DNA of 64,000 bases from Abditibacteriaceae bacterium (GTDB taxonomy: Bacteria; Armatimonadota; Abditibacteriia; Abditibacteriales; Abditibacteriaceae), in contig JANPJS010000045.1 of assembly GCA_031425655.1 (NCBI GenBank), positions 1-64,000 of the forward strand, given 5' to 3'. Below are positions 19,066 to 55,103 of this stretch, one piece after another. Position 1 is the first letter of the stretch; each line of letters starts with the position of its first letter. The position numbers were made by a program, and so were the translations under genes. The notes below the pieces were generated by a model that saw nothing but the letters and a program-made list of their open reading frames with translations, was not told where the DNA came from and ran no database searches.

Positions 19066-19192
19066 TTTCAATGGAACACGGAGCTTCGCTACACGGCGGC
19101 TTCGCCGACACGGATTTTCACTGATCAATCCAAAAAATCCGTGTAAATCTGTGTCGTTTCCGTGTCGGTGAAGCCGCCGTGTTCCATTGAAA
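19066..19192. mobile_element. MITE/REPIN-like element, family A copy 2
   Basis: TIR TTTCAATGGAACACGG...CCGTGTTCCATTGAAA. Confidence 0.85.
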
Positions 19193-25084: not shown

Positions 25085-26221
25085 TTAGGTCGGAATGTTT
25101 AATGCGCGCAATTCGCGCCTAATTTTCTCTCCGGCGCTCTCAATGCCATTCGATATGTCTATGTATTCGACTCCACTTATATCTGACGGTATTTCAAGTG
25201 GCCCTTTATGAAGCAAAAGTATTCTGCCGCTTTCCCGCTTCAGCACACCGAGAAAGAATCCCATCTCAAAAATGACATTCTGACGTGCCCGGCGCTTTTC
25301 GTCGTTAGAGTCGTTGGGAGAGGTTGCATTATCGTCTGGCGTTAGCAAAACGAATACTACCTCTATGCCTTGAGCATGGTGTTCAAACTTCTCAATTATT
25401 GTTCGGCCAAGACCTGCCTGCTCGCGTAAAATCGTAGGTTCGCCGAGCTTTAAAGTGTTTTGAATGTAATTTTTTAAGTTGAGTAAAGCTACTTCATCGT
25501 GGCCGTGGACAATGAATACGTTGACTTCTCGATCTGAGGGTTGATTAGTTTGATTTACACTCGTCATGTCCGCTCCCAGCCTTCTTAACAGATTTTGGAT
25601 TTGAATGGCTCTCGCTTCGTGTTCTGGATTATACACCTGTGGCAGGGCGGTAAGCTCCAACTCCCTTTTTGCTTTAATGATAGCCTGCTTTCTTCGATTG
25701 AGATCGTCCGCCATCGCGACGGCTAAATCTTTGTTGAAATCAACAAGTTTTTTAGTGAGTTCGTCTGCAAATTGTTCGATCAAGCCGGTTCGATAGTCCA
25801 GTTTCCGTTTTAAGGCGCCTTCTTCGTCATCTGGAGAGGCGCTAACTCTTATTTCGATACGATGACGTTCTTTATCTAAGAATGCCAAGGGAACGTTATG
25901 GATATTTTGATCGCTTATTTCATCCAGCCATTCAGCATCGCGTTCAATCGGAATAAAGAAAGGGTGGTAGGTAATTCCGGTTTTACGAAAGAAGGTATGG
26001 TCTACCGCCTCTAGGATTTCTTCATCCGCTTCCATCAAATCGAACCGAAGGATGGGCGGCGATACAGCATAATATCTGGTAAAGACAACCAATGTTCCGG
26101 TATCGCAGCGTAAAATATCCTCTTTAGAGAGTTCGTTGATGAACCTTAAGGCTTTTTCCCGACGCTCAATTAATTTTCTTTCCAGATAGCTGTAAGTGAA
26201 GGTAACTTCTTCATTGTTCAT
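25085..26221 (-). CDS. Protein with C-terminal CAP12/Pycsar-type TIR-like nucleotide-binding domain
   Basis: 'VFIVHGHD', 'TIIEKFE', 'LLTPDD', 'RARQNVIFEMGFF.G', 'PSDI.G'; AT-richer than flanks. Confidence 0.85.
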   Translation of the reverse strand: MNNEEVTFTYSYLERKLIERREKALRFINELSKEDILRCDTGTLVVFTRYYAVSPPILRFDLMEADEEILEAVDHTFFRKTGITYHPFFIPIERDAEWLDEISDQNIHNVPLAFLDKERHRIEIRVSASPDDEEGALKRKLDYRTGLIEQFADELTKKLVDFNKDLAVAMADDLNRRKQAIIKAKRELELTALPQVYNPEHEARAIQIQNLLRRLGADMTSVNQTNQPSDREVNVFIVHGHDEVALLNLKNYIQNTLKLGEPTILREQAGLGRTIIEKFEHHAQGIEVVFVLLTPDDNATSPNDSNDEKRRARQNVIFEMGFFLGVLKRESGRILLLHKGPLEIPSDISGVEYIDISNGIESAGEKIRRELRALNIPT

Positions 26222-27371: not shown

Positions 27372-27521
27372 CACTTTCAATGGAACACGGGCCTACGGCA
27401 TCCTGTCCAGAGGGCGCCCGAAACGACACAGATTCATCCGCCCAAAGGGCACCCGATTTTTTGGATTGATCTGCGGAAATCCCTGTGCATCCGCGAAATC
27501 CGTGTTCTATTGAAAGTGCTA
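27369..27521. mobile_element. MITE/REPIN-like element, family A copy 3
   Basis: TAGCACTTTCAATGGAACACGG...CCGTGTTCTATTGAAAGTGCTA; the arms include the stop codons of both convergent flanking genes. Confidence 0.85.
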
Positions 27522-29326: not shown

Positions 29327-30886
29327 TTAAACAGCCTCCAGCGGAATTATGCCTTCCACGAGGCGATGTTCGGGAAAGTCTTCGGCGTCGTCGAACAAAT
29401 AGCGCCAGCAAAACGAATAACGGCGCGGGTCTTTTTCAAAAGTGCCGGTGTGAACGCAGCATTGCCGCAGGCGGGCCGAGTGCAGCGTGTGCGCGTCCAT
29501 GAACATTTTGACCGTGATGCGAAACGTCTTCTCGGCGGTTTTTTCCAGCATCGAATCGCTCCAATCGCGCGCCGGACGCCATAATTCCAGCAATTCCGGC
29601 AGGCCCGCGACACAGCCGCACAAACGCGATAAATCGCGCGCCAGTTGCGGCGCGCCAAGCGGCAGTTGCTCTGAGAAAACGCGCGCAAGGGCGCCCGAAC
29701 GCAGCATTTCTTTGAGCGAATCGGAGGCGCTTTCAAAAGAAATCGTGTTGGCGAAAAGGTGCAGCCACGATTTCAATTCGTCGCGCCCGATAAGCTGTGG
29801 CAACGATTTCCAGCCGTTGCGGGTTTGCAAAAGATAGGTAATATCGCAGCAATCGCGGTGCGAGCAGGGCAAAGGTATGAAATCGTCGCCGCGCAATAAA
29901 CCGTCGCTTTGAGCTTCCAATCGCCGCAAAACGCCGGTCGGCGTGAGGCGGTTTTGTGGGTCGTAAGCCACGGCGCGGCCCGAACCGAACATCGGCTGAA
30001 TCGCCAAGCCGGAACAATGCGGCGTGTCCAAACCGAGTTGCACGACGGCGCCCAATTCGTCGTCGTTGACGCCCTGTGCGGCTGTCATTACTAACGTCGT
30101 CCACACGCCGGCTTTGCTTAATCGCTGCAAAGCGCGCAATTTTTCTGCGGCCACGTCGTCGCCGCGCAAAGTGAGATAAGTTTGTGGTCGCAAGCCATCG
30201 AATTGCAGGTAAATCTCGATTTTCCTGCGATGTTTTTGCAAGAATTGCAGGAATTTATCGTCGCGCGCGATGCGGCGCCCGTTGGTGTTGATGAGAATGC
30301 GCGTGATCGGCAAATCGCTCAGCGATTCGATGACTTGCGGCAAATCTTCGCGCACGGTTGGCTCGCCGCCCGACAGCATCAGCACGCCCAATTTGCCGTT
30401 TTCGCGCGCCAACATGGTTTCGACGGTGCGGCGGATTTCGTCAATCGAAGGATGCTCCGGCTGCGGCGAGGGCGTGCCGGGCGCAAGCGCCGAAGCGTAG
30501 CACGCCGGGCACGAATAATTGCAGCGAGCCGTGACGTTGAGCAGCAAAATGCAGGTGTGTTGGCCGTGCGAGGCCGGCAAACCGTCGCGGTAGGCGTCGG
30601 GAAAGGCGCCGAAATTATCGGCGCGATCCGGCGTGACACGAAGCGTCGGCGCACTCCAACCTTGCCGGGCGCGCCACAATTCGGCGTCTTCTTCGTAAAG
30701 CGATTCGCTTTCGCCGTGCGAAGCACAAAAGCGGCGCATCCAGACTTTGCCTTCTCGGCTCACCAGCATTCCGTCTTTCCAAATATCGGCTTCATCCGAG
30801 CGCCGTGCGCGTTCGGCGAAGCATTGCGGGCAAACCGTGGTTGTGTATTCTTCGATGAGATAATCGCGCGGCGGCATTCCAATCAT
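29327..30886 (-). CDS. Radical SAM protein (Tes/MJ0619-like architecture)
   Basis: N-terminal 'CPQC...C..HG'; 'CNYSCPAC'; 'LSGGEPT'; 'INTNG'; 'IYLQFDG'; C-terminal 'CC...FC'. Confidence 0.85.
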   Translation of the reverse strand: MIGMPPRDYLIEEYTTTVCPQCFAERARRSDEADIWKDGMLVSREGKVWMRRFCASHGESESLYEEDAELWRARQGWSAPTLRVTPDRADNFGAFPDAYRDGLPASHGQHTCILLLNVTARCNYSCPACYASALAPGTPSPQPEHPSIDEIRRTVETMLARENGKLGVLMLSGGEPTVREDLPQVIESLSDLPITRILINTNGRRIARDDKFLQFLQKHRRKIEIYLQFDGLRPQTYLTLRGDDVAAEKLRALQRLSKAGVWTTLVMTAAQGVNDDELGAVVQLGLDTPHCSGLAIQPMFGSGRAVAYDPQNRLTPTGVLRRLEAQSDGLLRGDDFIPLPCSHRDCCDITYLLQTRNGWKSLPQLIGRDELKSWLHLFANTISFESASDSLKEMLRSGALARVFSEQLPLGAPQLARDLSRLCGCVAGLPELLELWRPARDWSDSMLEKTAEKTFRITVKMFMDAHTLHSARLRQCCVHTGTFEKDPRRYSFCWRYLFDDAEDFPEHRLVEGIIPLEAV

Positions 30887-30901
30887 GGCTACAATTTTAG
30901 T

Positions 30902-31441
30902 GTGAAACGAACGTGGATGCTGTTTATCATCGCGGCGATAATTGGAAGCGGCGTGTTCTGGCTGCGCCGCGCGCCGAATCCATCGTGGCCTGTGCCTGCG
31001 CCGCTTCCGCTGCGTTTAACTCTGCCTTACGGCATGGCGCCGCCGGCTTTTAAGGCGTTCGTGCGCGCTTGTCATCGCGCGAAAATTCATCCGTGGCGCA
31101 TCGGGCAAACCATCGGCGAGCATCCACTGTCGGTGGGCTACCATCGTCAAGACGGCGTGTGGCGGCTGAATAAAATGCCGTTCGATTATTGCGCCGCCGT
31201 GGATTTAGGCACCAGCGACCTCAACGAAACGCAGATTAAGGTATTTCTCGAAGAGTTGGCGAAGCAGGGATTTGCGTCCTTTTATCGTCACGGAGGCAAA
31301 TGGAAAGGCCGCGAGCATATTCACGCGATTTACGCGCTACTGCCGATGAAAATTCAACTGCGCCGCCAAGTGCGCGAATTTTTGCGCGAGCGCCGCGCCG
31401 CGAAGAAGCCGAATTTGAAGTGGGCGAAACGCTGGCGCTAA
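30902..31441 (+). CDS. Hypothetical membrane-anchored protein
   Basis: GTG start shortly after a TACAAT -10-like box; N-terminal TM; 'GYH..DG', 'AVDL', 'EHIHAIY' His motifs. Confidence 0.65.
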   Translation: MKRTWMLFIIAAIIGSGVFWLRRAPNPSWPVPAPLPLRLTLPYGMAPPAFKAFVRACHRAKIHPWRIGQTIGEHPLSVGYHRQDGVWRLNKMPFDYCAAVDLGTSDLNETQIKVFLEELAKQGFASFYRHGGKWKGREHIHAIYALLPMKIQLRRQVREFLRERRAAKKPNLKWAKRWR

Positions 31442-31502
31442 ACCGACGGGTTTCGCTTTGTTTTTGGTTTCAGCGCGGTTAAAATCAGCGCAGGAGAACG
31501 AA

Positions 31503-32765
31503 ATGAATCATTTAAAACATCCCTTGTTGATGGCCGGTGTGGCGCTTCTGCTTGCGGCTGAAATCGGGCACGCGCGTTGGATAAAGGTCACCGAACCTGT
31601 TCCCGTTGATCGTCTGGCCGCAAACGTAGCGCGCTATGTGAAAGAGCATCCGGCGGACGCCGAAGGCTATTACACGCTGGGGCGTATTCACAGCCTCGCC
31701 TTCGCGCGCGGCACGGCAACCGTTGAGGTGATTCCCGCCGGTAGCAAATATAAGCGGGAAAAGCCGGAATTGCCGGGCTTTGCCGGTTACGATTCGGTGC
31801 AGGTGCGACGGGAAAAATCGGAGGCGCCGCTCAGTGACGCGCTTGTGGCGCATTTGAAAGCCTCCGTAGCCAACTACGCCAAAGCCAGCGAGTTGGCGCC
31901 CACGAACGCGCTTTATCTGTTGGGTTACGGCTGGATGTTGGAGCAAGGCGCGCCTTATGCCTCCAAAATCGGCGCGCCGTGGGACGATAATCGGAAAAAG
32001 CAGGCCGAAGTCAAATCGGCGGATTGGCTGGAAAAGTCTTTGGCCGTTTATCGAAAAGCCTTTGATCTGACTGTTGAATCCGACGCCGGTAGAATGAGGG
32101 GGCCAAAGGCAGATAGCGCGATCAGTATCGAAGCTGGGCAGGGCATTTTTCGCATATATGGTGTTTCTCAGCACCCCTCTGAGGCCGACCAAAAGAAGAC
32201 GGATGCGGAAATGCAGGAAATCACCCGCGTGCGCGTCGGCTTCGCCAAAGTGATCGTTAGGCCGACGGCAGTCACGCCGATTATCGTGCCGCTGGGCCGC
32301 GAAACGTCGCTGCGCGGCCTGCTGGCGCCGGGCAAAAGCGTGAGATTCGATTTAGCCGGCGATGGTTTGGGAAAGCGTTGGCCGTGGGTAAAGCCGGACA
32401 CCGGCATTCTGGTGTGGGATCCGCAGCAGAGCGGGAAAATCACCTCCGGGCGGCAATTATTCGGCTCGGTAACGTGGTGGATTTTCTGGAAAAACGGCTA
32501 CGATGCGCTGGCCGCCCTCGACAACGACGGAAACGGTCTTTTAACCGGACGCGAACTGGATGGCATTTCAATCTGGCGCGATGGCAACGGCAACGGCGTT
32601 TCTGATTTCGGCGAAGTCAAGTCGCTCGAAGAGTGGGACATCCGCGCCATTGCAACGCGCGCCAGTCGGAAAATTGAAGGCGTGCCTGCCAATCTGCGCG
32701 GCTGCCTCCGCAGCGACGGCACATGGCTGCCAACCTACGATTGGACGCCGCAATCGCTGGATTGA
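31503..32765 (+). CDS. Secreted protein with TPR-like N-half and Ca-binding/EF-hand-like C-terminal domain
   Basis: AGGAG RBS; signal peptide; 'TPIIVPL...FDLAGDG...W...D.G.LVWD...G.ITSG.QLFG', 'DNDGNG', 'DGNGNG'. Confidence 0.75.
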   Translation: MNHLKHPLLMAGVALLLAAEIGHARWIKVTEPVPVDRLAANVARYVKEHPADAEGYYTLGRIHSLAFARGTATVEVIPAGSKYKREKPELPGFAGYDSVQVRREKSEAPLSDALVAHLKASVANYAKASELAPTNALYLLGYGWMLEQGAPYASKIGAPWDDNRKKQAEVKSADWLEKSLAVYRKAFDLTVESDAGRMRGPKADSAISIEAGQGIFRIYGVSQHPSEADQKKTDAEMQEITRVRVGFAKVIVRPTAVTPIIVPLGRETSLRGLLAPGKSVRFDLAGDGLGKRWPWVKPDTGILVWDPQQSGKITSGRQLFGSVTWWIFWKNGYDALAALDNDGNGLLTGRELDGISIWRDGNGNGVSDFGEVKSLEEWDIRAIATRASRKIEGVPANLRGCLRSDGTWLPTYDWTPQSLD

Positions 32766-32769
32766 ATGT

Positions 32770-32809
32770 TTAACCGCCAAGACGCCAAGGACGCCAAGAA
32801 TTGTGAGGG
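32770..32809 (+). repeat. Left 40-bp inverted repeat of the GxxExxY element
   Basis: TTAACCGCCAAGACGCCAAGGACGCCAAGAATTGTGAGGG. Confidence 0.95.
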
Positions 32810-32812
32810 ATA

Positions 32813-33196
32813 ATGGAACCAGGAAGTGAATTGGATTTGCTGGCGAGAGCCGTAATTGGTGCGGCCATCGAAGTGCATCGTCAGCTTGGCCCCGGTTTTC
32901 TGGAATCGGTTTATGAGCAGGCGTTGGCGATTGAGTTCGCAGAACGTGGCCTTTCCTTCGCCCGACAAGTGGAAATCGCGGTGAATTATAAGGGGCAGCG
33001 AGTGGGCGAAGGGCGTTTGGATTTTCTGGTCGGTGGACTGCTCATCATAGAATTGAAAGCGGTCGAATCTTTAGCGCCCATTCATACAGCCCAAGTTCTC
33101 TCATATCTCAAAACTACCGGGTTTCAACTCGGCTTGCTCATCAACTTCAATGTTCCGGTGCTTAAACAAGGCTTGCGCCGCGTCATTCTTTCTTAG
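32813..33196 (+). CDS. GxxExxY protein (PD-(D/E)XK nuclease-like)
   Basis: 'VHRQLGPGFLESVYE', 'RLDFLV', 'IIELKA', 'AQVLSYLK', 'GLLINF'. Confidence 0.95.
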   Translation: MEPGSELDLLARAVIGAAIEVHRQLGPGFLESVYEQALAIEFAERGLSFARQVEIAVNYKGQRVGEGRLDFLVGGLLIIELKAVESLAPIHTAQVLSYLKTTGFQLGLLINFNVPVLKQGLRRVILS

Positions 33197-35130
33197 CCCT
33201 CGCAATTCTTGGCGTCCTTGGCGTCTTGGCGGTTAACCAGCTTGAAATAGACCGTTGCCAGCGGCGGAAGCGTGACTTCGATGGAATAAGGCAGGCCGTG
33301 CCACGACTGTTCCTGCGATTCGACGCCGCCCAAATTGCCGACGTTTCCGCCCCAGTAGAGCGCCGAATCGGTGTTTAACAATTCGCGGTAAAAGCCGGGC
33401 TGCGGCACGCCGATGCGATAATGGTCGCGCGCAATTGGCGTGAAATTGGAAATCACAATCAGCGAATCGCTTTTGTCGGCGTCGTGGCGCATGAAAGAAA
33501 CGGTGCAGTTTTCGGTATCGCTGCCGTCAATCCACGAAAAACCTTCGCGCTTGAAATCCACTTCGTAAAGCGCCGGCTCGCTTTTCAGCAGCCGATTCAA
33601 TTCTTGCACCAGCCGTTGCACGCCCTGATGGCTGGACGCGGAAAGCGCATCCCATTCAAGCTGAGTGGCAAAAGCCCATTCCTGCCATTGGCCGAATTCT
33701 CCGCCCATGAAAAGCAGTTTTTTGCCGGGATGCGCCCACATAAAGCCCAAATACGCGCGCAAATTGGCGAATTGCTGCCATTCGTCGCCCGGCATTTTAC
33801 CCAGCAGCGAACGCTTGAGATGCACCACTTCATCGTGCGAAAGCGGCAGCACGAAGTTTTCGTTGAACGAGTAGTGCAGGCTGTAAGTGATTTCGCTTTG
33901 GTGCCAGCGGCGGTGAATCGGCTCGTATTTTATGTATTTCAGGCTGTCGTTCATCCAGCCCATGTTCCACTTCATGCTGAAGCCTAAGCCTCCGACATAA
34001 GTCGGCATCGTAACCATCGGCCACGAGGTGGATTCTTCAGCGATGGTTAGCGTGCCGGGAAAAAGGCCGTGCGCGGCTTCGTTCATTTTCTGCAAAAACG
34101 AAATCGCGCCCAGATTTTCGCGTCCGCCGTGCGCGTTGGGCATCCAGTCGCCGCCTTCGCGCGAATAATCGAGATACAGCATCGAAGCCACGGCGTCCAC
34201 GCGCAGGCCGTCGAAGTGATACTTTTCCAGCCAGAAAAGCGCGTTTGACAGCAAAAACGAGCGCACTTCGCAGCGTTCGTAGTTGAAGATTAAAGTGCCC
34301 CAATCAACGTGTTCACCCTGACGCGGATCGGCGTGCGAATATAAGTGCGTGCCGTCGAAATAATTGAGGCCGGAGCCGTCTTTGGGAAAGTGCGCCGGCA
34401 CCCAGTCAAGCAAAACGCCGATGCCTTCCTGATGGCACTGGTCAATGAAATACATTAAGTCTTGCGGCGTGCCGAAACGGCTGGTCGGCGCGAAAAATCC
34501 CAGCACTTGATAGCCCCACGATTGGTCGAAGGGAAACTCCAAAATCGGCAGAAATTCGATGTGCGTGAAGCCCATTTCCTTAACATAAGGGATGAGTTCA
34601 TCCGCCATTTCGCGGTAAGTGAGATAACGCCGGCCCCATTGTTCGTCGTGTTTGGTGCGCCACGAGCCGAGATGCACTTCGTAAATCGAAAGCGGCTGAT
34701 CGAGTGCTTGATGCTTCGCGCGATTAGCGACCCACGCGGCGTCGTTCCATTGATACGAATCGAGTTTGGCCACGACCGAACCGGTGCGAGGCCGCTGTTC
34801 CATCGCAAAACCATACGGATCGCATTTATCGTAGCCTTCGCCGCTCGCGCCGATGACGCGATATTTATAAACCGCGTGTTCGCCCAAACCGGGCATAAAC
34901 AGCGTCCAGATGCCGCCCGTTCCCGGCGTCATCGGGTGACTGCTGTTATTCCATTCGTTGAACTCGCCGAAGAGAAACACCTGCTGCGCGTTGGGCGCCC
35001 AGACCGAAAACCGCACGCCGTCTTTGCCGCCGTGTTGCGTGATATGCGCGCCCATTTTGTCGTAGATGCGCTCGTGCGTGCCTTCGCCAAAAAGGTGCAG
35101 GTCGAGATCGGTAAACCAAGAGTTTTTCAT
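33193..35130 (-). CDS. glgB: 1,4-alpha-glucan branching enzyme
   Basis: 'FSVWAPNA', 'YEVHLGSW', 'SWGYQ', 'DWVPAHFP', 'RVDAVASM', 'AEEST', 'LSHDEVVH'. Confidence 0.96.
   Translation of the reverse strand: MKNSWFTDLDLHLFGEGTHERIYDKMGAHITQHGGKDGVRFSVWAPNAQQVFLFGEFNEWNNSSHPMTPGTGGIWTLFMPGLGEHAVYKYRVIGASGEGYDKCDPYGFAMEQRPRTGSVVAKLDSYQWNDAAWVANRAKHQALDQPLSIYEVHLGSWRTKHDEQWGRRYLTYREMADELIPYVKEMGFTHIEFLPILEFPFDQSWGYQVLGFFAPTSRFGTPQDLMYFIDQCHQEGIGVLLDWVPAHFPKDGSGLNYFDGTHLYSHADPRQGEHVDWGTLIFNYERCEVRSFLLSNALFWLEKYHFDGLRVDAVASMLYLDYSREGGDWMPNAHGGRENLGAISFLQKMNEAAHGLFPGTLTIAEESTSWPMVTMPTYVGGLGFSMKWNMGWMNDSLKYIKYEPIHRRWHQSEITYSLHYSFNENFVLPLSHDEVVHLKRSLLGKMPGDEWQQFANLRAYLGFMWAHPGKKLLFMGGEFGQWQEWAFATQLEWDALSASSHQGVQRLVQELNRLLKSEPALYEVDFKREGFSWIDGSDTENCTVSFMRHDADKSDSLIVISNFTPIARDHYRIGVPQPGFYRELLNTDSALYWGGNVGNLGGVESQEQSWHGLPYSIEVTLPPLATVYFKLVNRQDAKDAKNCEG
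33197..33236 (-). repeat. Right 40-bp inverted repeat of the GxxExxY element
   Basis: CCCTCGCAATTCTTGGCGTCCTTGGCGTCTTGGCGGTTAA; one mismatch to the left arm. Confidence 0.95.
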
Positions 35131-35131
35131 G

Positions 35132-35166
35132 AAAATTTTGAATTTTGAATTTTGAATTTCGAATTG
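35132..35166. repeat. Heptamer tandem repeat (AATTTTG)n
   Basis: AAAATTTTGAATTTTGAATTTTGAATTTCGAATTG directly upstream of the glgB start. Confidence 0.7.
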
Positions 35167-35227
35167 CGACTCGCACAGAGCGCAGTTCTGTTCTCAATTC
35201 TATCGCGCTATGCAAAGCGCGGCGCGT

Positions 35228-36514
35228 TTAGCGGTTCACGCCGAAGACGAAATCGCCTTTGCTCTTGTCGCTTACTAAAAAGCGACCGGTCGTTGCGGTT
35301 TTGGCGGGATTCTCGATAGCTTTGCCGCCATCGTCTACGGTATCGGGGCCAACGCTCCACAAAACGTAGGTGCTACCTTGCTTTTTGTAGCGCAAACCTT
35401 CGCCGGCGCCAAAGGCATCGGCGGGAACGGCTTGCAGATAATTCGGCACAAGCTGCGTCAGTTTTTCGGGAAACGCGCCCTTTTCGAGTTGGTAAGCGCG
35501 CAAAGCCAAAGCGGTCATCACAAGCGAAGCGCCGGTTTCGGCGCGGGCATCGTTCCAGCGCGCACGAGTGAAAACCGGCTCTAAATCGCCGGTGAGAAAA
35601 TCAACGGGCGGAAGCGGCGTGGATGCCGTGGAATAAGGCTGTTTAGCCGATGCGCTCAGCGCGTCCATATAGGCCAGAAATTCGCGCATCACGCGCCTTC
35701 GGGTGGCTAAACGGAAATGCGGTTTTTTCGTGGCGGCATTGTAGCCGCTGATTTGAAAGGCTAACGATTGTGCCGCGCCGCTTTTCATCATGCCGAGAAT
35801 ATTGGCGGCGACTATCCATTTTTCCTGCTGCAAAACTTCGGAAAACGGCACGCGCCCGGCACGCAGCTTTTCGATTTCGCGCGCGGCGCTGCGGCAGGTT
35901 GCGGCGTCGAGATGCGGCAATAATTCTTGCAAACTTCGCCGTCCGTAAGCCTGCACCGCGTAGCCGACAAGCGTGCCGATAAGTGGCGCGCCGCGTGGAA
36001 TATCGTAGCCGAGATGGAGGCCATCTAAGGCGCTGCGTGTTGCGCCCTTCCAGTCGCCCCGTGCGGCGCGGGCTTCGCTTTCAGCGGCCAGGCTGCGCGC
36101 AAAATCGCGGACGCCCGCATAATGCGAAGGCGGGGGTGTGCCTTTCTGCGGCGGCTCACGATACGCATAAGCGAAACCTTGCCGCAGTAGTTGGAACGCA
36201 CGCTCGTTTTGCTTCAGCCACGCGTTCACTTGCGGTTGGTGCGTGCGATAAATCGGCAAGCGTTGCTCAAAGGGCACGCGCGGGCTGGATGCGATGCCCA
36301 GTGTCTTTTCTAAATCGCCAGAAGTCGAAACTTGCGCTTTAGCGGCTTGCACCACGAAATCGTAGGCGTTGGGTTTGGGTAACGCCACGATGGGAATGTT
36401 GACGGCAGGCATCGCCGTGAAAGCAAACCAACTCCACGCCGCGCCCAGCAGTCCGATGGCGAAGACCGTCATGCAGCCGAACATCCGGATTTCTTTGTGT
36501 GTAAAAGGTTTCAT
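35228..36514 (-). CDS. Membrane-anchored hypothetical protein, paralog 1 of 3 (pseudopilin GspG-like C-terminal motif)
   Basis: N-terminal TM; 'ALRAY.LE.G.FP..L.QLVPNYL...P.D.FG...LRY......LWSVGPD..DDGG'. Confidence 0.8.
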   Translation of the reverse strand: MKPFTHKEIRMFGCMTVFAIGLLGAAWSWFAFTAMPAVNIPIVALPKPNAYDFVVQAAKAQVSTSGDLEKTLGIASSPRVPFEQRLPIYRTHQPQVNAWLKQNERAFQLLRQGFAYAYREPPQKGTPPPSHYAGVRDFARSLAAESEARAARGDWKGATRSALDGLHLGYDIPRGAPLIGTLVGYAVQAYGRRSLQELLPHLDAATCRSAAREIEKLRAGRVPFSEVLQQEKWIVAANILGMMKSGAAQSLAFQISGYNAATKKPHFRLATRRRVMREFLAYMDALSASAKQPYSTASTPLPPVDFLTGDLEPVFTRARWNDARAETGASLVMTALALRAYQLEKGAFPEKLTQLVPNYLQAVPADAFGAGEGLRYKKQGSTYVLWSVGPDTVDDGGKAIENPAKTATTGRFLVSDKSKGDFVFGVNR

Positions 36515-36520
36515 CGTGTT

Positions 36521-37813
36521 TCAACGGTTCTTGCCGTGAACCCAATCGCCTTTGTAAGGCATTTCAACTTCGTTCTCGGCTTCGTCGCCGAAAACATCCT
36601 GCCGCGTGAGTCCGGGGCCGGCATTGCTGCCAACCGGCACGCCTCCGTCATCTTTTTTGTCGGGGCCGATGCTCCATAAAACAAAGTTGTTGCCCTGCTT
36701 TTTATAGCGCAAGCCTTCGCCGCCGCCGAACGGATCAGAGGGAATTTGCGGCAGAGTATTCGGCGTTAATTGCGAAAGCGTGGCGGGATATGCGCCGCTT
36801 TCAAGGTGATAAGCGCGCAAAGCCAGCGCGACGATCAAAAGTGCGGTGCGCGTTTCGGTAGCGGCGTTGTTGAAGCGCGCATTTGCATCGTCCATTGATC
36901 GGCGTTCCATCCACATTCCCAACACGCCTGCGGGCCTTGCCACAGACGGCGCCGTCGCGTAGGGTTTTTTCGCCGCCGCGATGCGCGCGTCGAAATAGCG
37001 CGTTAACTCGTTGAATAATCGCTTTTTGCCCTTGAATTGCACCGGCAGCAGATCCGAGTAAGATGCCGGTGCGCCAAGTTGCCTGAAAATCTGGTCGGCC
37101 CAATCGCGCTGGCGTAGAACGTCTAAAAGCATGAGTTGGTAGAAGTATTTTTGATGTTGAATCTGTTGCCATAAAGGTCGCCGCTGCGTGTGCCATTGAA
37201 AAATGCGACGCGCCGCTGAGCGGCAAAAATTGGCATCGAAGTGAGTTTGAAGCACTTTTAGCTGGCGCGTGCTGCTTTCCCCATTCTGTGTTTTGATGCC
37301 AAATTGAAGCCCCTCTAATGCGCTTTGCGCGGCGCCCTTCCAATCGCCCTGTGCGGCGCGCACGTCGCTTTCCACGCGCAGTGCGTTGGACAAATTGCCG
37401 TAGCCCCGCCACAGCATAAAATTGAACATCGTTTTCGGATCGGCTGGAAATTGATACGGTTTGGGCAAGCCTTCGCGCAACGCTTTCAGGGCCTGCGTGT
37501 TCTGGCTAAGCCACGCTTTTTTGCGCCACAGCGGATACACCCTCGGCCAGTCTTTGCGCGGCACGTTTTTGCGGTCGAACATCGCGTCGAGAGGCGGATT
37601 GCGCGGCGCGGCGACGGCCAGCATGGCGGCGCTGAAGAAATCATCGAAAGCGTTGACGGCTAACGGTGTCTGCGCGGGCATTTCGATTTCGGGCAATTCG
37701 TTGAGCGTGCCCCACCACAGCAACGTGCCCAAAAACGCGCCGGTCAGCAGCACGCAGACGAAAAGAAATCGCTTCTCGGCGCTATCGAAGTGCAGACGGA
37801 TGCGAGTAGCCAT
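36521..37813 (-). CDS. Membrane-anchored hypothetical protein, paralog 2 of 3
   Basis: Same motifs; ATG overlaps the upstream stop (TGATG). Confidence 0.8.
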   Translation of the reverse strand: MATRIRLHFDSAEKRFLFVCVLLTGAFLGTLLWWGTLNELPEIEMPAQTPLAVNAFDDFFSAAMLAVAAPRNPPLDAMFDRKNVPRKDWPRVYPLWRKKAWLSQNTQALKALREGLPKPYQFPADPKTMFNFMLWRGYGNLSNALRVESDVRAAQGDWKGAAQSALEGLQFGIKTQNGESSTRQLKVLQTHFDANFCRSAARRIFQWHTQRRPLWQQIQHQKYFYQLMLLDVLRQRDWADQIFRQLGAPASYSDLLPVQFKGKKRLFNELTRYFDARIAAAKKPYATAPSVARPAGVLGMWMERRSMDDANARFNNAATETRTALLIVALALRAYHLESGAYPATLSQLTPNTLPQIPSDPFGGGEGLRYKKQGNNFVLWSIGPDKKDDGGVPVGSNAGPGLTRQDVFGDEAENEVEMPYKGDWVHGKNR

Positions 37814-39129
37814 CAGCGGTTTTTTTCGTAAACCCAATCGCCTTGCGAGGTAACGTCTACAGTCACTTCGTCACTGTAAAGGTCATAGGCCCGCGAAGGG
37901 CGCGGCGTGCCTTGAATCGCTTTGCCGCCGTTATCTTTCTTGTCGGGGCCGATGCTCCACAAAACGAAGCTGTCGCCCTGTTTTTTGTAGCGCAACGCTT
38001 CGCCCCGGCCAAAGCCGTCCATCGGCAGTTGCGACAGATAATTGGGCACTAATTGCTCAAGTTTTTCGGGAAATGCGCCGCGTTCGAGATTGTAAGCACG
38101 CAAAGCCAGCGCGGTGGCCAACATCAGGTTGCCCGTCGCGGCGCGGGCGTCGTTAAAGCGCGCGTGTTCATAAGCCGGCGCCAGCGATTCGCCGACAAAG
38201 CCGTCGGGCAGCGGCACCGTGGGTGCCGTCGCGTAAGGCTGCTTTGCCGAAGCGATGATCCCATCCATGTAGCGCGTGTAATCGCTAAGAATCCGCCGCT
38301 TGGACGTGAAGCGGTAGCGCAAGTAATCGCCGATATTCGGTGGCCCGCCGCCGATTCCCCATGAAGCGTAAAGCTGATTCGCCCAATCGCGCTGGCGCAT
38401 GGCATCGAGCAAGCCGCCCTGTCCGCTCCACTTTTCCTCGCGCAGCACTTGCCAGAAGGGCACGCGCGCGGCGTGGATTTGCTCGATGCGGCGCGCGGCG
38501 GCGCGGCAGGTTGGGGCATCCAAATGAGGAACGAGGCTTTGCAACTGCCTTCGGCCCATCGCTTGAATCGTATAGCCGACCAGAGCGCCGATGAGCGGCC
38601 CGCCGTTGGGAATCTGCCCGCCAAATTGCATCGTATCTAAAGCGCTTTGCGACGCGCCTTTCCAATCGCCATCGGCGGCGCGCACACGGCTTTCGACGCT
38701 GATCACCCGCGCCATCTCGCGGAACCGCGCGTAATGCGGAAAAAGCGCCGAAAACGAACGCGGCGCCGGCTCGACGTAAACGCGGCGCAAGCCCTGCCGA
38801 AAGGCTTTTAAGGCCGGCGCATTTTGCCTGAGCCACACTTTTTTGCGCCACAGCGGATAAACCTTCGGCCAATCCTTTTTCGGCACCTCTTTGCTGTCTA
38901 ACATCGCATCTACTGCTTGTCTGGGCGGCGAGGGCATCAGCAGCACATTGGCTTGCACGAAGTCGTCGTAGGCGTTGAGCGCGGGCAACGCTTTCGCGGG
39001 AATTTCGATCTCCGGCAGCGTGTTGACCTCGCCCCACCAGCGCAAAGCGCCGAAAAACAGCGCAATCAGCAGCAAACTGGCGGCAAGAAATCGCTTTTCG
39101 GCTTTGTCAAATTGCGGGCGGGTAACCAT
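37813..39129 (-). CDS. Membrane-anchored hypothetical protein, paralog 3 of 3
   Basis: Same motifs; start placed at MVTRPQ because upstream codons fall inside a MITE. Confidence 0.8.
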   Translation of the reverse strand: MVTRPQFDKAEKRFLAASLLLIALFFGALRWWGEVNTLPEIEIPAKALPALNAYDDFVQANVLLMPSPPRQAVDAMLDSKEVPKKDWPKVYPLWRKKVWLRQNAPALKAFRQGLRRVYVEPAPRSFSALFPHYARFREMARVISVESRVRAADGDWKGASQSALDTMQFGGQIPNGGPLIGALVGYTIQAMGRRQLQSLVPHLDAPTCRAAARRIEQIHAARVPFWQVLREEKWSGQGGLLDAMRQRDWANQLYASWGIGGGPPNIGDYLRYRFTSKRRILSDYTRYMDGIIASAKQPYATAPTVPLPDGFVGESLAPAYEHARFNDARAATGNLMLATALALRAYNLERGAFPEKLEQLVPNYLSQLPMDGFGRGEALRYKKQGDSFVLWSIGPDKKDNGGKAIQGTPRPSRAYDLYSDEVTVDVTSQGDWVYEKNR

Positions 39130-39149
39130 AGAGTTATTTTTCGCAAAGT

Positions 39150-39276
39150 TTTCAATGGAACACGGGGCCTTCGGCCACACGGAAACGACACAGATTTTCA
39201 CAGATCAAGCCAACAGAAAAATCCGTGTTAATCCGTGTCGTTTCCGTGTCGGCGAAGCCGCCGTGTTCCATTGAAA
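39150..39276. mobile_element. MITE/REPIN-like element, family A copy 4
   Basis: TIR TTTCAATGGAACACGG...CCGTGTTCCATTGAAA. Confidence 0.85.
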
Positions 39277-55023: not shown

Positions 55024-55103
55024 TTCACCGCCGAGACGCTGAGACGCAGAGAAATTTAAGCATATATTTGGTTTTCTCTGCGCCTCAGCGCCTCGGCGGT
55101 GAA
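55024..55103. mobile_element. Gene-less inverted-repeat element with three 8-bp units per arm
   Basis: TTCACCGCCGAGACGCTGAGACGCAGAGAA...TTCTCTGCGCCTCAGCGCCTCGGCGGTGAA. Confidence 0.85.

Follow-up and report, generated by a model that had tools for sequence, protein, structure and literature searches.

REPIN-RAYT systems, or REPtrons (REP, repetitive extragenic palindrome; REPIN, REP doublet forming a hairpin; RAYT, REP-associated tyrosine transposase), are built around an enzyme gene, present in one copy, that has its cognate repeats on either side; a genome holds several such enzyme-repeat pairs. According to the portions of the sources consulted (PMC3116915; bioRxiv 10.1101/2021.07.10.451892; PMC3733652), the repeats form extragenic doublets of ~100 bp in which conserved arms in inverted orientation enclose a variable spacer, and they are scarce where the enzyme is missing. 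The open reading frame (ORF)-bearing intervening sequence (IVS) of 23S rRNA, which encodes an S23p (PF05635) protein, is described in the consulted part of PMC4990558 as a small ORF whose enclosing terminal inverted repeats pair into a long stem, with a sporadic, horizontally acquired distribution. Short 7-mer arrays have been reported at gene junctions in Beggiatoaceae as intergenic heptamer direct repeats, and their author suggested, in the part consulted, that the mobile agent may be an unknown protein that binds the repeats (PMC4679880). The PDDEXK_3 family, in turn, is listed as function unknown with multiple transfers in the available section of PMC3424549. Here we describe a 467-bp cassette from an Abditibacteriaceae bacterium, situated within a window of 64,000 nucleotides that comprises the whole stretch of DNA analysed (GCA_031425655.1, contig JANPJS010000045.1, positions 1 to 64,000). 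The cassette is a GxxExxY (PDDEXK_3) gene set between inverted arrays of a heptamer. Such arrays bracket most of the homologs collected, recur as gene-less pairs throughout this genome, and are very probably read by the encoded protein.

The arms of the cassette (32770-32809 and 33197-33236) pair at 39 of 40 positions. Each contains three CGCCAAG units and has TTAA at its outer end, and the ATG of the nuclease gene begins 3 bp past the left arm. In these respects (arms, units, spacing, ORF and a 467-bp unit) an earlier sequence-only reading of this DNA was accurate. The inverted repeat extends to 44 bp with 42 identities (Table 1), and the inward end of each extended arm is TAA. On the left, this TAA overlaps the ATG (TAATG) and ends a 15-codon leader opened just past the upstream TGA; on the right, it overlaps the nuclease TAG and is also the stop of a convergent glycogen branching enzyme-like gene, which we take to be glgB and whose reading frame spans the entire right arm. 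The GAGGG that had been proposed as a ribosome-binding site is present, but with a spacing of only 3 nt before the ATG, and translational coupling appears equally plausible. This inner extension of the left arm is absent from other members of the CGCCAAG family. Within 30000-36000 the cassette arms are the longest inverted repeat, with an inverted-repeat score of 77 as against 28 at most for shifted controls. A contig from sequencing run X1, a possible source of this DNA, spans 32774-33232 with zero differences. Among the joints listed for run X1 none bypasses the whole cassette, contigs being apt to lose rare variants, and the joints at 32798-33208 derive from gene-less doublets elsewhere. 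Promoter and terminator matches were not found, and 32000-35500 yielded no Rfam match.

Bracketing by inverted arrays is a general property of the homologs collected. An inverted repeat score of at least 30 was obtained at 86 of 107 homologous loci and at none of 391 shifted controls; three further loci were dropped for short flanks, and three of the 107 with truncated flanks were counted as misses. The comparison was then enlarged to 320 distinct proteins, seven of which were dropped, and 247 of 313 loci were bracketed versus 13 of 1500 random small ORFs, the enlarged set being the top hits to two queries plus relatives and not an unbiased sample. The expectation that GxxExxY homologs in general carry such arrays was thereby borne out. 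The left arm lies inside the open frame of the gene at 123 of 220 homologous loci.

In the genome that contains the window (G000), tblastn returned nine hits. Eight are full paralogs, including the query, from which the other seven differ considerably (41-56% identity), and 8/8 are bracketed by inverted arrays of a different sequence each. Multicopy insertion sequence (IS) behaviour was rejected as an explanation, given this low identity and the separate arms of every paralog. The ninth hit (C106:16818, L219) is a divergent, longer frame of 267 amino acids without a flanking array, possibly a fused or domesticated form.

Most arrays reduce to the heptamer C-R-C-N-R-A-K with a spacing of mostly 8-10 bp. 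Arms of at least three units number 469 in G000 versus 17 in the reversed genome. They are paired inward 169 times versus 3 times outward, with the same heptamer type on both arms in 132 of the 169 inward pairs. Nearly all inward doublets lack a gene, as expected had the cassette given rise to gene-less derivatives. Only 19 of 169 doublet midpoints fall inside ORFs of at least 200 amino acids, although such ORFs cover 81% of the genome, and 122 of 146 doublets lie within 20 nt of a stop codon, just 3' of it. Divergent spacers are avoided (4/120 doublets vs 417/3057 of all spacers), and spacers between convergent genes are enriched (30/120 vs 413/3057). The CGCCAAG family comprises 19 pairs, the cassette included, and TTAA terminates 24 of its 38 arms; the arm ends of other heptamer families differ from TTAA. 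The congeners G001-G003 contain zero CGCCAAG arms. Two further observations concern the arrays. Arms of several families have a constant GC-rich module of ~18 bp (core CCCAGAGGGC) between their heptamers, and a small seven-copy element with short terminal repeats of its own holds an internal CGCAGAG doublet, apparently a case of hitch-hiking in another miniature inverted-repeat transposable element (MITE); positions of both are given in Table 1.

The protein and its arms are connected by a residue-to-base correspondence, which was assessed in the 230 of 320 loci with at least two units per side. Where residue 11 is A, G or T, base 5 agrees in 167 of 171 rows (A or G with base A, T with base G); the remaining 59 rows, mostly with Ser at this residue, were excluded from that count. 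At base 4, C goes with D at residue 8 in 29 of 31 rows, and base A is accompanied by N in 72 of 120; the 40 mixed rows were left unlabelled. The combinations of bases 4 and 5 are factorial: CA occurs with D/A in 18 of 20 rows, CG with D/T in 10 of 11, and AG with N/T or N/S in 59 of 100. The same pattern was reproduced with labels taken from the downstream arm only. In a within-clade permutation, where residues 14-125 served to delimit the clades, columns 8 and 11 ranked first or second of 127. The best tree implies 16-18 changes of the residue and base traits, with only 4-7 pairs on strong branches. All four D/N by A/T combinations are realised by four paralogs of G000, including the one on C298, and at one orthologous cyanobacterial locus the arms and helix 1 were switched jointly (L047/L053 vs L055/L061). 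In the query the specificity residues are D8 and A11, in helix 1. Because residues 8 and 11 track bases 4 and 5, within clades too, it is very probable that the protein recognises its own arms. From this covariation we hold it highly likely that the protein uses helix 1 to bind the heptamers in DNA, with residue 8 reading base 4 and residue 11 reading base 5. A signal that links residue 127 to base 2 probably arises from the end of the alignment, and base 7 cannot be assigned to a single residue because it follows a deep clade split.

The ORF matches PF13366 (E 3.8e-43, 147 bits, cut-off 22) and TIGR04256 GxxExxY (E 2.5e-43, 147 bits, cut-off 35), and no other family, DDE and HUH/Y1 included, was matched in the profile searches. 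A fold model built from the alignment reached a predicted local distance difference test score (pLDDT) of 96, the single-sequence model only 43. The nearest folds in Foldseek were Cas4, lambda exonuclease and Hjc, with a best E of 2.4e-3 and hence nothing at E <= 0.001, and VIA Z remained below 8 (best 7.8, tied); no solved structure of a relative was found by sequence. No fold match stands out that would place the protein in one PD-(D/E)XK subgroup. The active-site set is E31, D70, E80-x-K82 and Q94-xxx-Y98, and these six residues are conserved in 225-230 of 230 homologs (D70 in 230, E80 in 225, K82 in 229). The predicted fold and the intact E...D...E-x-K site are those of a PD-(D/E)XK nuclease, and the near-invariance of the residues argues for an active enzyme. 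The identification of GxxExxY proteins with this fold, and the statement that the unit encodes no DDE or HUH enzyme, therefore stood. Iron-sulfur cluster cysteines are not conserved among the homologs.

An invariant active site and a separate specificity for each paralog would also suit an addiction or conflict module, in which the nuclease is restrained by binding its own arrays and the arrays spread as decoys or protective marks; the family is in addition found on 8 plasmid records. The cassette, on the other hand, has no partner gene (Cas1 and TnsB included) and no PADLOC match, only 4 loci were found in viral contigs, and the strict inward pairing of the arms would be left unexplained. We regard such a module as very unlikely.

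GxxExxY genes occur in 53 of 151 genomes of the phylum, and the best hits come from many phyla. Among 41 related genomes, in which kin are non-independent and several assemblies are incomplete, 29 of 29 gene-positive genomes hold at least 13 arms, and 8 of 12 gene-negative genomes hold three or fewer. In the genus Dolichospermum, 8 of 20 genomes carry the cassette at one locus and 3 of 20 have it there in collapsed form, and it occurs at other loci too. Similar cassettes (~83-90%) sit at different loci, and retention at a fixed locus was also seen at 5 other cyanobacterial loci. The DNA past the right arm differs in most of the eight Dolichospermum-genus cassette genomes (L156-L163), and the right arm there may be a gene-capture hotspot; these loci are rearranged too much to define element ends. 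Broken GxxExxY genes with clean arms were also encountered (L468-L470, in G011 and G001).

This distribution bears on whether the protein is a domesticated host factor, one that would bind and possibly nick sites across the genome in the service of, for example, repair, transcript termini or the folding of the chromosome, its own arms being autoregulatory operators. Each specificity is represented by a single copy, the fixed cyanobacterial loci speak for vertical retention, and the enrichment of doublets between convergent genes would fit such a role. The patchy occurrence in the phylum does not, nor do the existence of broken copies, the lack of both gene and sites in relatives that are 93-98% identical, or insertions that replace intergenic DNA and sometimes gene ends. 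We therefore consider a host function of this kind improbable.

Filled and empty sites could be compared directly in G189, a Methylophilaceae chromosome (record L102), where the cassette lies between two genes, presumably trpE and trpG by their motifs, that are adjacent and empty in relatives. At this site the empty alleles come from four relatives that are 95-98% identical over both genes and from eight more distant ones. G189 has the gene and 42 arms, while G200, G196 and G195, all without the gene, have 0, 0 and 1. Eighteen G189 elements were examined, and an empty allele was available for 14 (for the other 4, none was present in the fetched DNA). No target duplication was found at any of the 14 sites in 26 pairwise comparisons. 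Rather, insertion was accompanied by the loss of 3-71 bp of target and the gain of 6-188 bp of non-target flank, of which ~5-8 bp is arm consensus, and our reading of the alignments is that a gene end was rewritten at some sites. Empty alleles align with one another despite drift. In G000, spacers without any other genomic match make up 84 of 109, and none matches a GxxExxY gene except the cassette's own. A few spacer families have clearly been copied, sharing up to ~20 bp of self-complementary flank. In 28% of doublets the two partner arms are identical, a figure that falls to 1.5% for arms of different doublets; the likeness extends several bases past the units and suggests either that one arm is templated on the other or that pairing is under selection.

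These comparisons largely refute a cut-and-paste transposon of the classical type, bounded by terminal inverted repeats and generating a TTAA duplication, of which the doublets would be the MITEs. The layout of the cassette resembles that of such a transposon, with TTAA at both ends, and the sequence-only reading had suggested TTAA as a possible target site, with one copy expected in empty sites; the collapsed derivatives at the Dolichospermum locus and the similar cassettes at different loci would also suit a transposon of this type. TTAA is nonetheless found at only 24 of the 38 ends of its own family, and none of the 14 filled/empty sites shows a duplication. The ends are ragged, the spacers are mostly unique and unrelated to the gene, and the protein has no DDE fold, so that we give this explanation hardly any weight. 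A homing endonuclease element was rejected as well: insertion sites differ between loci in place of one conserved site, and the code points to recognition of arms that belong to the element itself and are absent from the empty allele. The cassette locus is not stably syntenic. The glgB-like orthologs of G001-G003 lack the cassette at their 3' end in 3/3 cases, and G001 has a gene-less CACAGAG/CACAAAG doublet in that position. No empty site was found for the exact cassette locus because the upstream gene was not found in the five relatives searched.

We consider it somewhat more likely than not that a two-part selfish system is at work here, of which the cassette represents the member with the gene, and in which the nuclease spreads arm pairs through cutting and host repair. 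The three units of each arm would be occupied by several protomers, which would draw both arms into one complex; at differing distances beyond the arms, the Cas4/RecB-type site would introduce a nick or a cut. What is released or copied would have ragged flanks, and it would be inserted by host recombination or repair, not by a strand-transfer enzyme, with the deletion of a few to tens of target bases. Arm-on-arm templated repair may keep partners alike and locally lengthen the repeat, the 44-bp arms of this cassette being a likely example. Movement of the gene would be rare and would cross taxa; doublets would multiply in trans.

Several observations weigh against this interpretation. The strongest is that 5 of 7 four-helix-bundle (PF05635) genes in G000 are also bracketed by inverted arrays, of other 6-7-mers (C74, C253, C54, C92, C262): the design needs no nuclease, so the nuclease may not be the mover. 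PF05635 proteins are not known to have nuclease activity. About a fifth of the enlarged set (66/313 loci) scores below 30. Four of the 12 gene-negative genomes hold 11-154 arms, the gene-less G197 holds 16, and a D8/A11 gene was not found in 3 of the 5 genomes that have CGCCAAG arms. In the residue code, Ser at residue 11 goes with either base 5, and G or T at base 4 lacks a clean residue partner; sign tests on strong independent pairs gave p 0.25 with four pairs and p 0.06 with five, and the median misses 0.05. The filled and empty genomes compared differ by 2-16%, and drift of this extent may erase a 2-bp duplication and blur the ends. Finally, whole-element copying is rarely caught, as the large share of unmatched spacers indicates.

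The PF05635 loci also bring up an RNA-level element comparable to the ORF-bearing IVS, in which the arms would pair in the transcript, ribonuclease III or the protein would process the stem, and spread would proceed by host recombination or reverse transcription. The cassette transcript folds as a single long stem around the ORF (z -8.3). The position of doublets close to stop codons and their scarcity in divergent spacers agree with an element acting in transcripts, and PF05635, a family known from IVS ORFs, is bracketed alike. A Coxiella IVS has a 28-bp stem that is cut by ribonuclease III, as stated in the part consulted of PMC4990558. Ribonuclease III, however, requires a stem and not iterated heptamers, and a base-by-residue code would be easier to realise on duplex DNA. 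The cassette lies outside rRNA and matches nothing in Rfam, and cleavage of the stem in an mRNA would leave the message unrestored. An RNA-level element is thus unlikely in our view.

The cassette functions like a REPIN-RAYT system but does not belong to that class. It shares the features listed at the outset, with extragenic inverted doublets of variable spacer and a family tied to one gene. Its enzyme, however, is a PD-(D/E)XK protein and not HUH/Y1, and its arms are tandem heptamer arrays without an internal palindrome, a lone arm folding poorly (-0.5 to -3.6 kcal/mol). Its gene changes locus, crosses phyla and is found on some plasmids, whereas RAYTs are vertical, fixed and off plasmids in the REPIN-RAYT sources as far as consulted. 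With the 23S rRNA IVS it has in common the terminal stem that encloses an ORF, but it lies at protein-gene junctions instead of in an rRNA gene, encodes a nuclease and has many gene-less copies. The Beggiatoaceae repeats differ in motif and are almost all direct rather than paired inverted, and no protein is identified for them in the part of PMC4679880 consulted.

IS elements and their MITEs resemble the cassette in having one ORF between terminal inverted repeats and non-autonomous derivatives. Iterated binding sites near the ends are known in Tn7 or Mu, and some DDE IS elements use TTAA-type targets. The cassette has none of the DDE fold, target duplication, fixed ends or near-identical gene copies in G000. 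Its protein shares the PD-(D/E)XK core with the Cas4, RecB-family and Hjc nucleases and has the QxxxY motif of the RecB/Cas4 group, and TnsA is a known PD-(D/E)XK protein that cuts transposon ends. Set against these, it is short (127 amino acids), has neither conserved iron-sulfur cysteines nor Cas1 or TnsB, and carries an added N-terminal helix that appears to confer sequence specificity. The association of a GxxExxY gene with inverted heptamer arrays appears undescribed, no description having been found in the literature, the supplements of which were not read.

More broadly, we tentatively propose, at slightly less than even odds, that GxxExxY proteins mobilise a widespread class of elements without DDE, HUH, tyrosine/serine recombinase or reverse transcriptase chemistry. 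A nuclease of 127 amino acids, re-programmed in nature by a two-residue code within a single helix, would read the iterated heptamers and cut outside the arms; host repair would then install the arm pairs at gene junctions, where spacer DNA would be replaced and gene ends might even be rewritten, and four-helix-bundle cassettes would constitute a sister class.

Table 1. Coordinates of the cassette, its neighbours and related repeats (window positions unless a contig of G000 is given)
Feature	Position	Strand	Basis or remarks
Left arm	32770..32813	+	TTAAC; CGCCAAG units 32775-81, 32783-89, 32792-98; inner extension with GAGGG 32805-09 and TAA
Possible 15-codon leader through left arm, TGA-ATG to TAATG	32766..32813	+	putative coupling
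GxxExxY / PDDEXK_3 gene, 127 amino acids	32813..33196	+	profile matches, fold model, conserved residues
Right arm, inverted copy	33193..33236	-	units 33208-14, 33217-23, 33225-31; encodes last residues and stop of glgB-like gene
Upstream neighbour, 435 amino acids, outside element	31458..32765	+	no Pfam, NCBIfam or PADLOC match
Convergent glycogen branching enzyme-like gene	33193..35130	-	CBM48 and alpha-amylase domains
Gene-less doublet, sister heptamer family (CGCAGAG type)	55029..55098	.	
Gene-less doublet, CACGGA-type family	19070..19188	.	cognate paralogs on C215 and C228
Further CACGGA-type gene-less doublets	27379-27511; 39154-39272		
Seven-copy element in G000	C33:2911, C48:3025, C84:1317, C126:21391, C278:6532, C286:18997, C23:7134		
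GC-rich module in G000	C298:36394, C186:20726, C310:11019, C73:19563, C143 right arm; window 27379		

Other parts of the window are of separate interest. At ~35131-35165, before glgB, there is a gene-less array of the PF05635-associated kind, which is also found in G001-G003. A likely defence gene at 25085-26221 (minus strand) encodes a 378-amino-acid protein with a C-terminal CAP12/Pycsar TIR domain and a PADLOC PDC-S35 match. Three tandem paralogous ORFs of 428-462 amino acids at 35228-39201 (minus strand) have similar C-terminal ends, which we take to resemble a pilin-like pseudo-domain.

The association described here supplies a testable function for a common family that had none assigned, and it could account for many intergenic repeats of one large class, represented by the hundreds of arms in G000. 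The residue code makes the central claim testable by two point swaps, and a 127-amino-acid nuclease with a readable residue-to-base code is a starting point for structure and engineering. If the protein mobilises the repeats, it would represent a new transposition chemistry that has independently reached the REPIN-RAYT strategy, with a bearing on how repeats persist in bacterial genomes.

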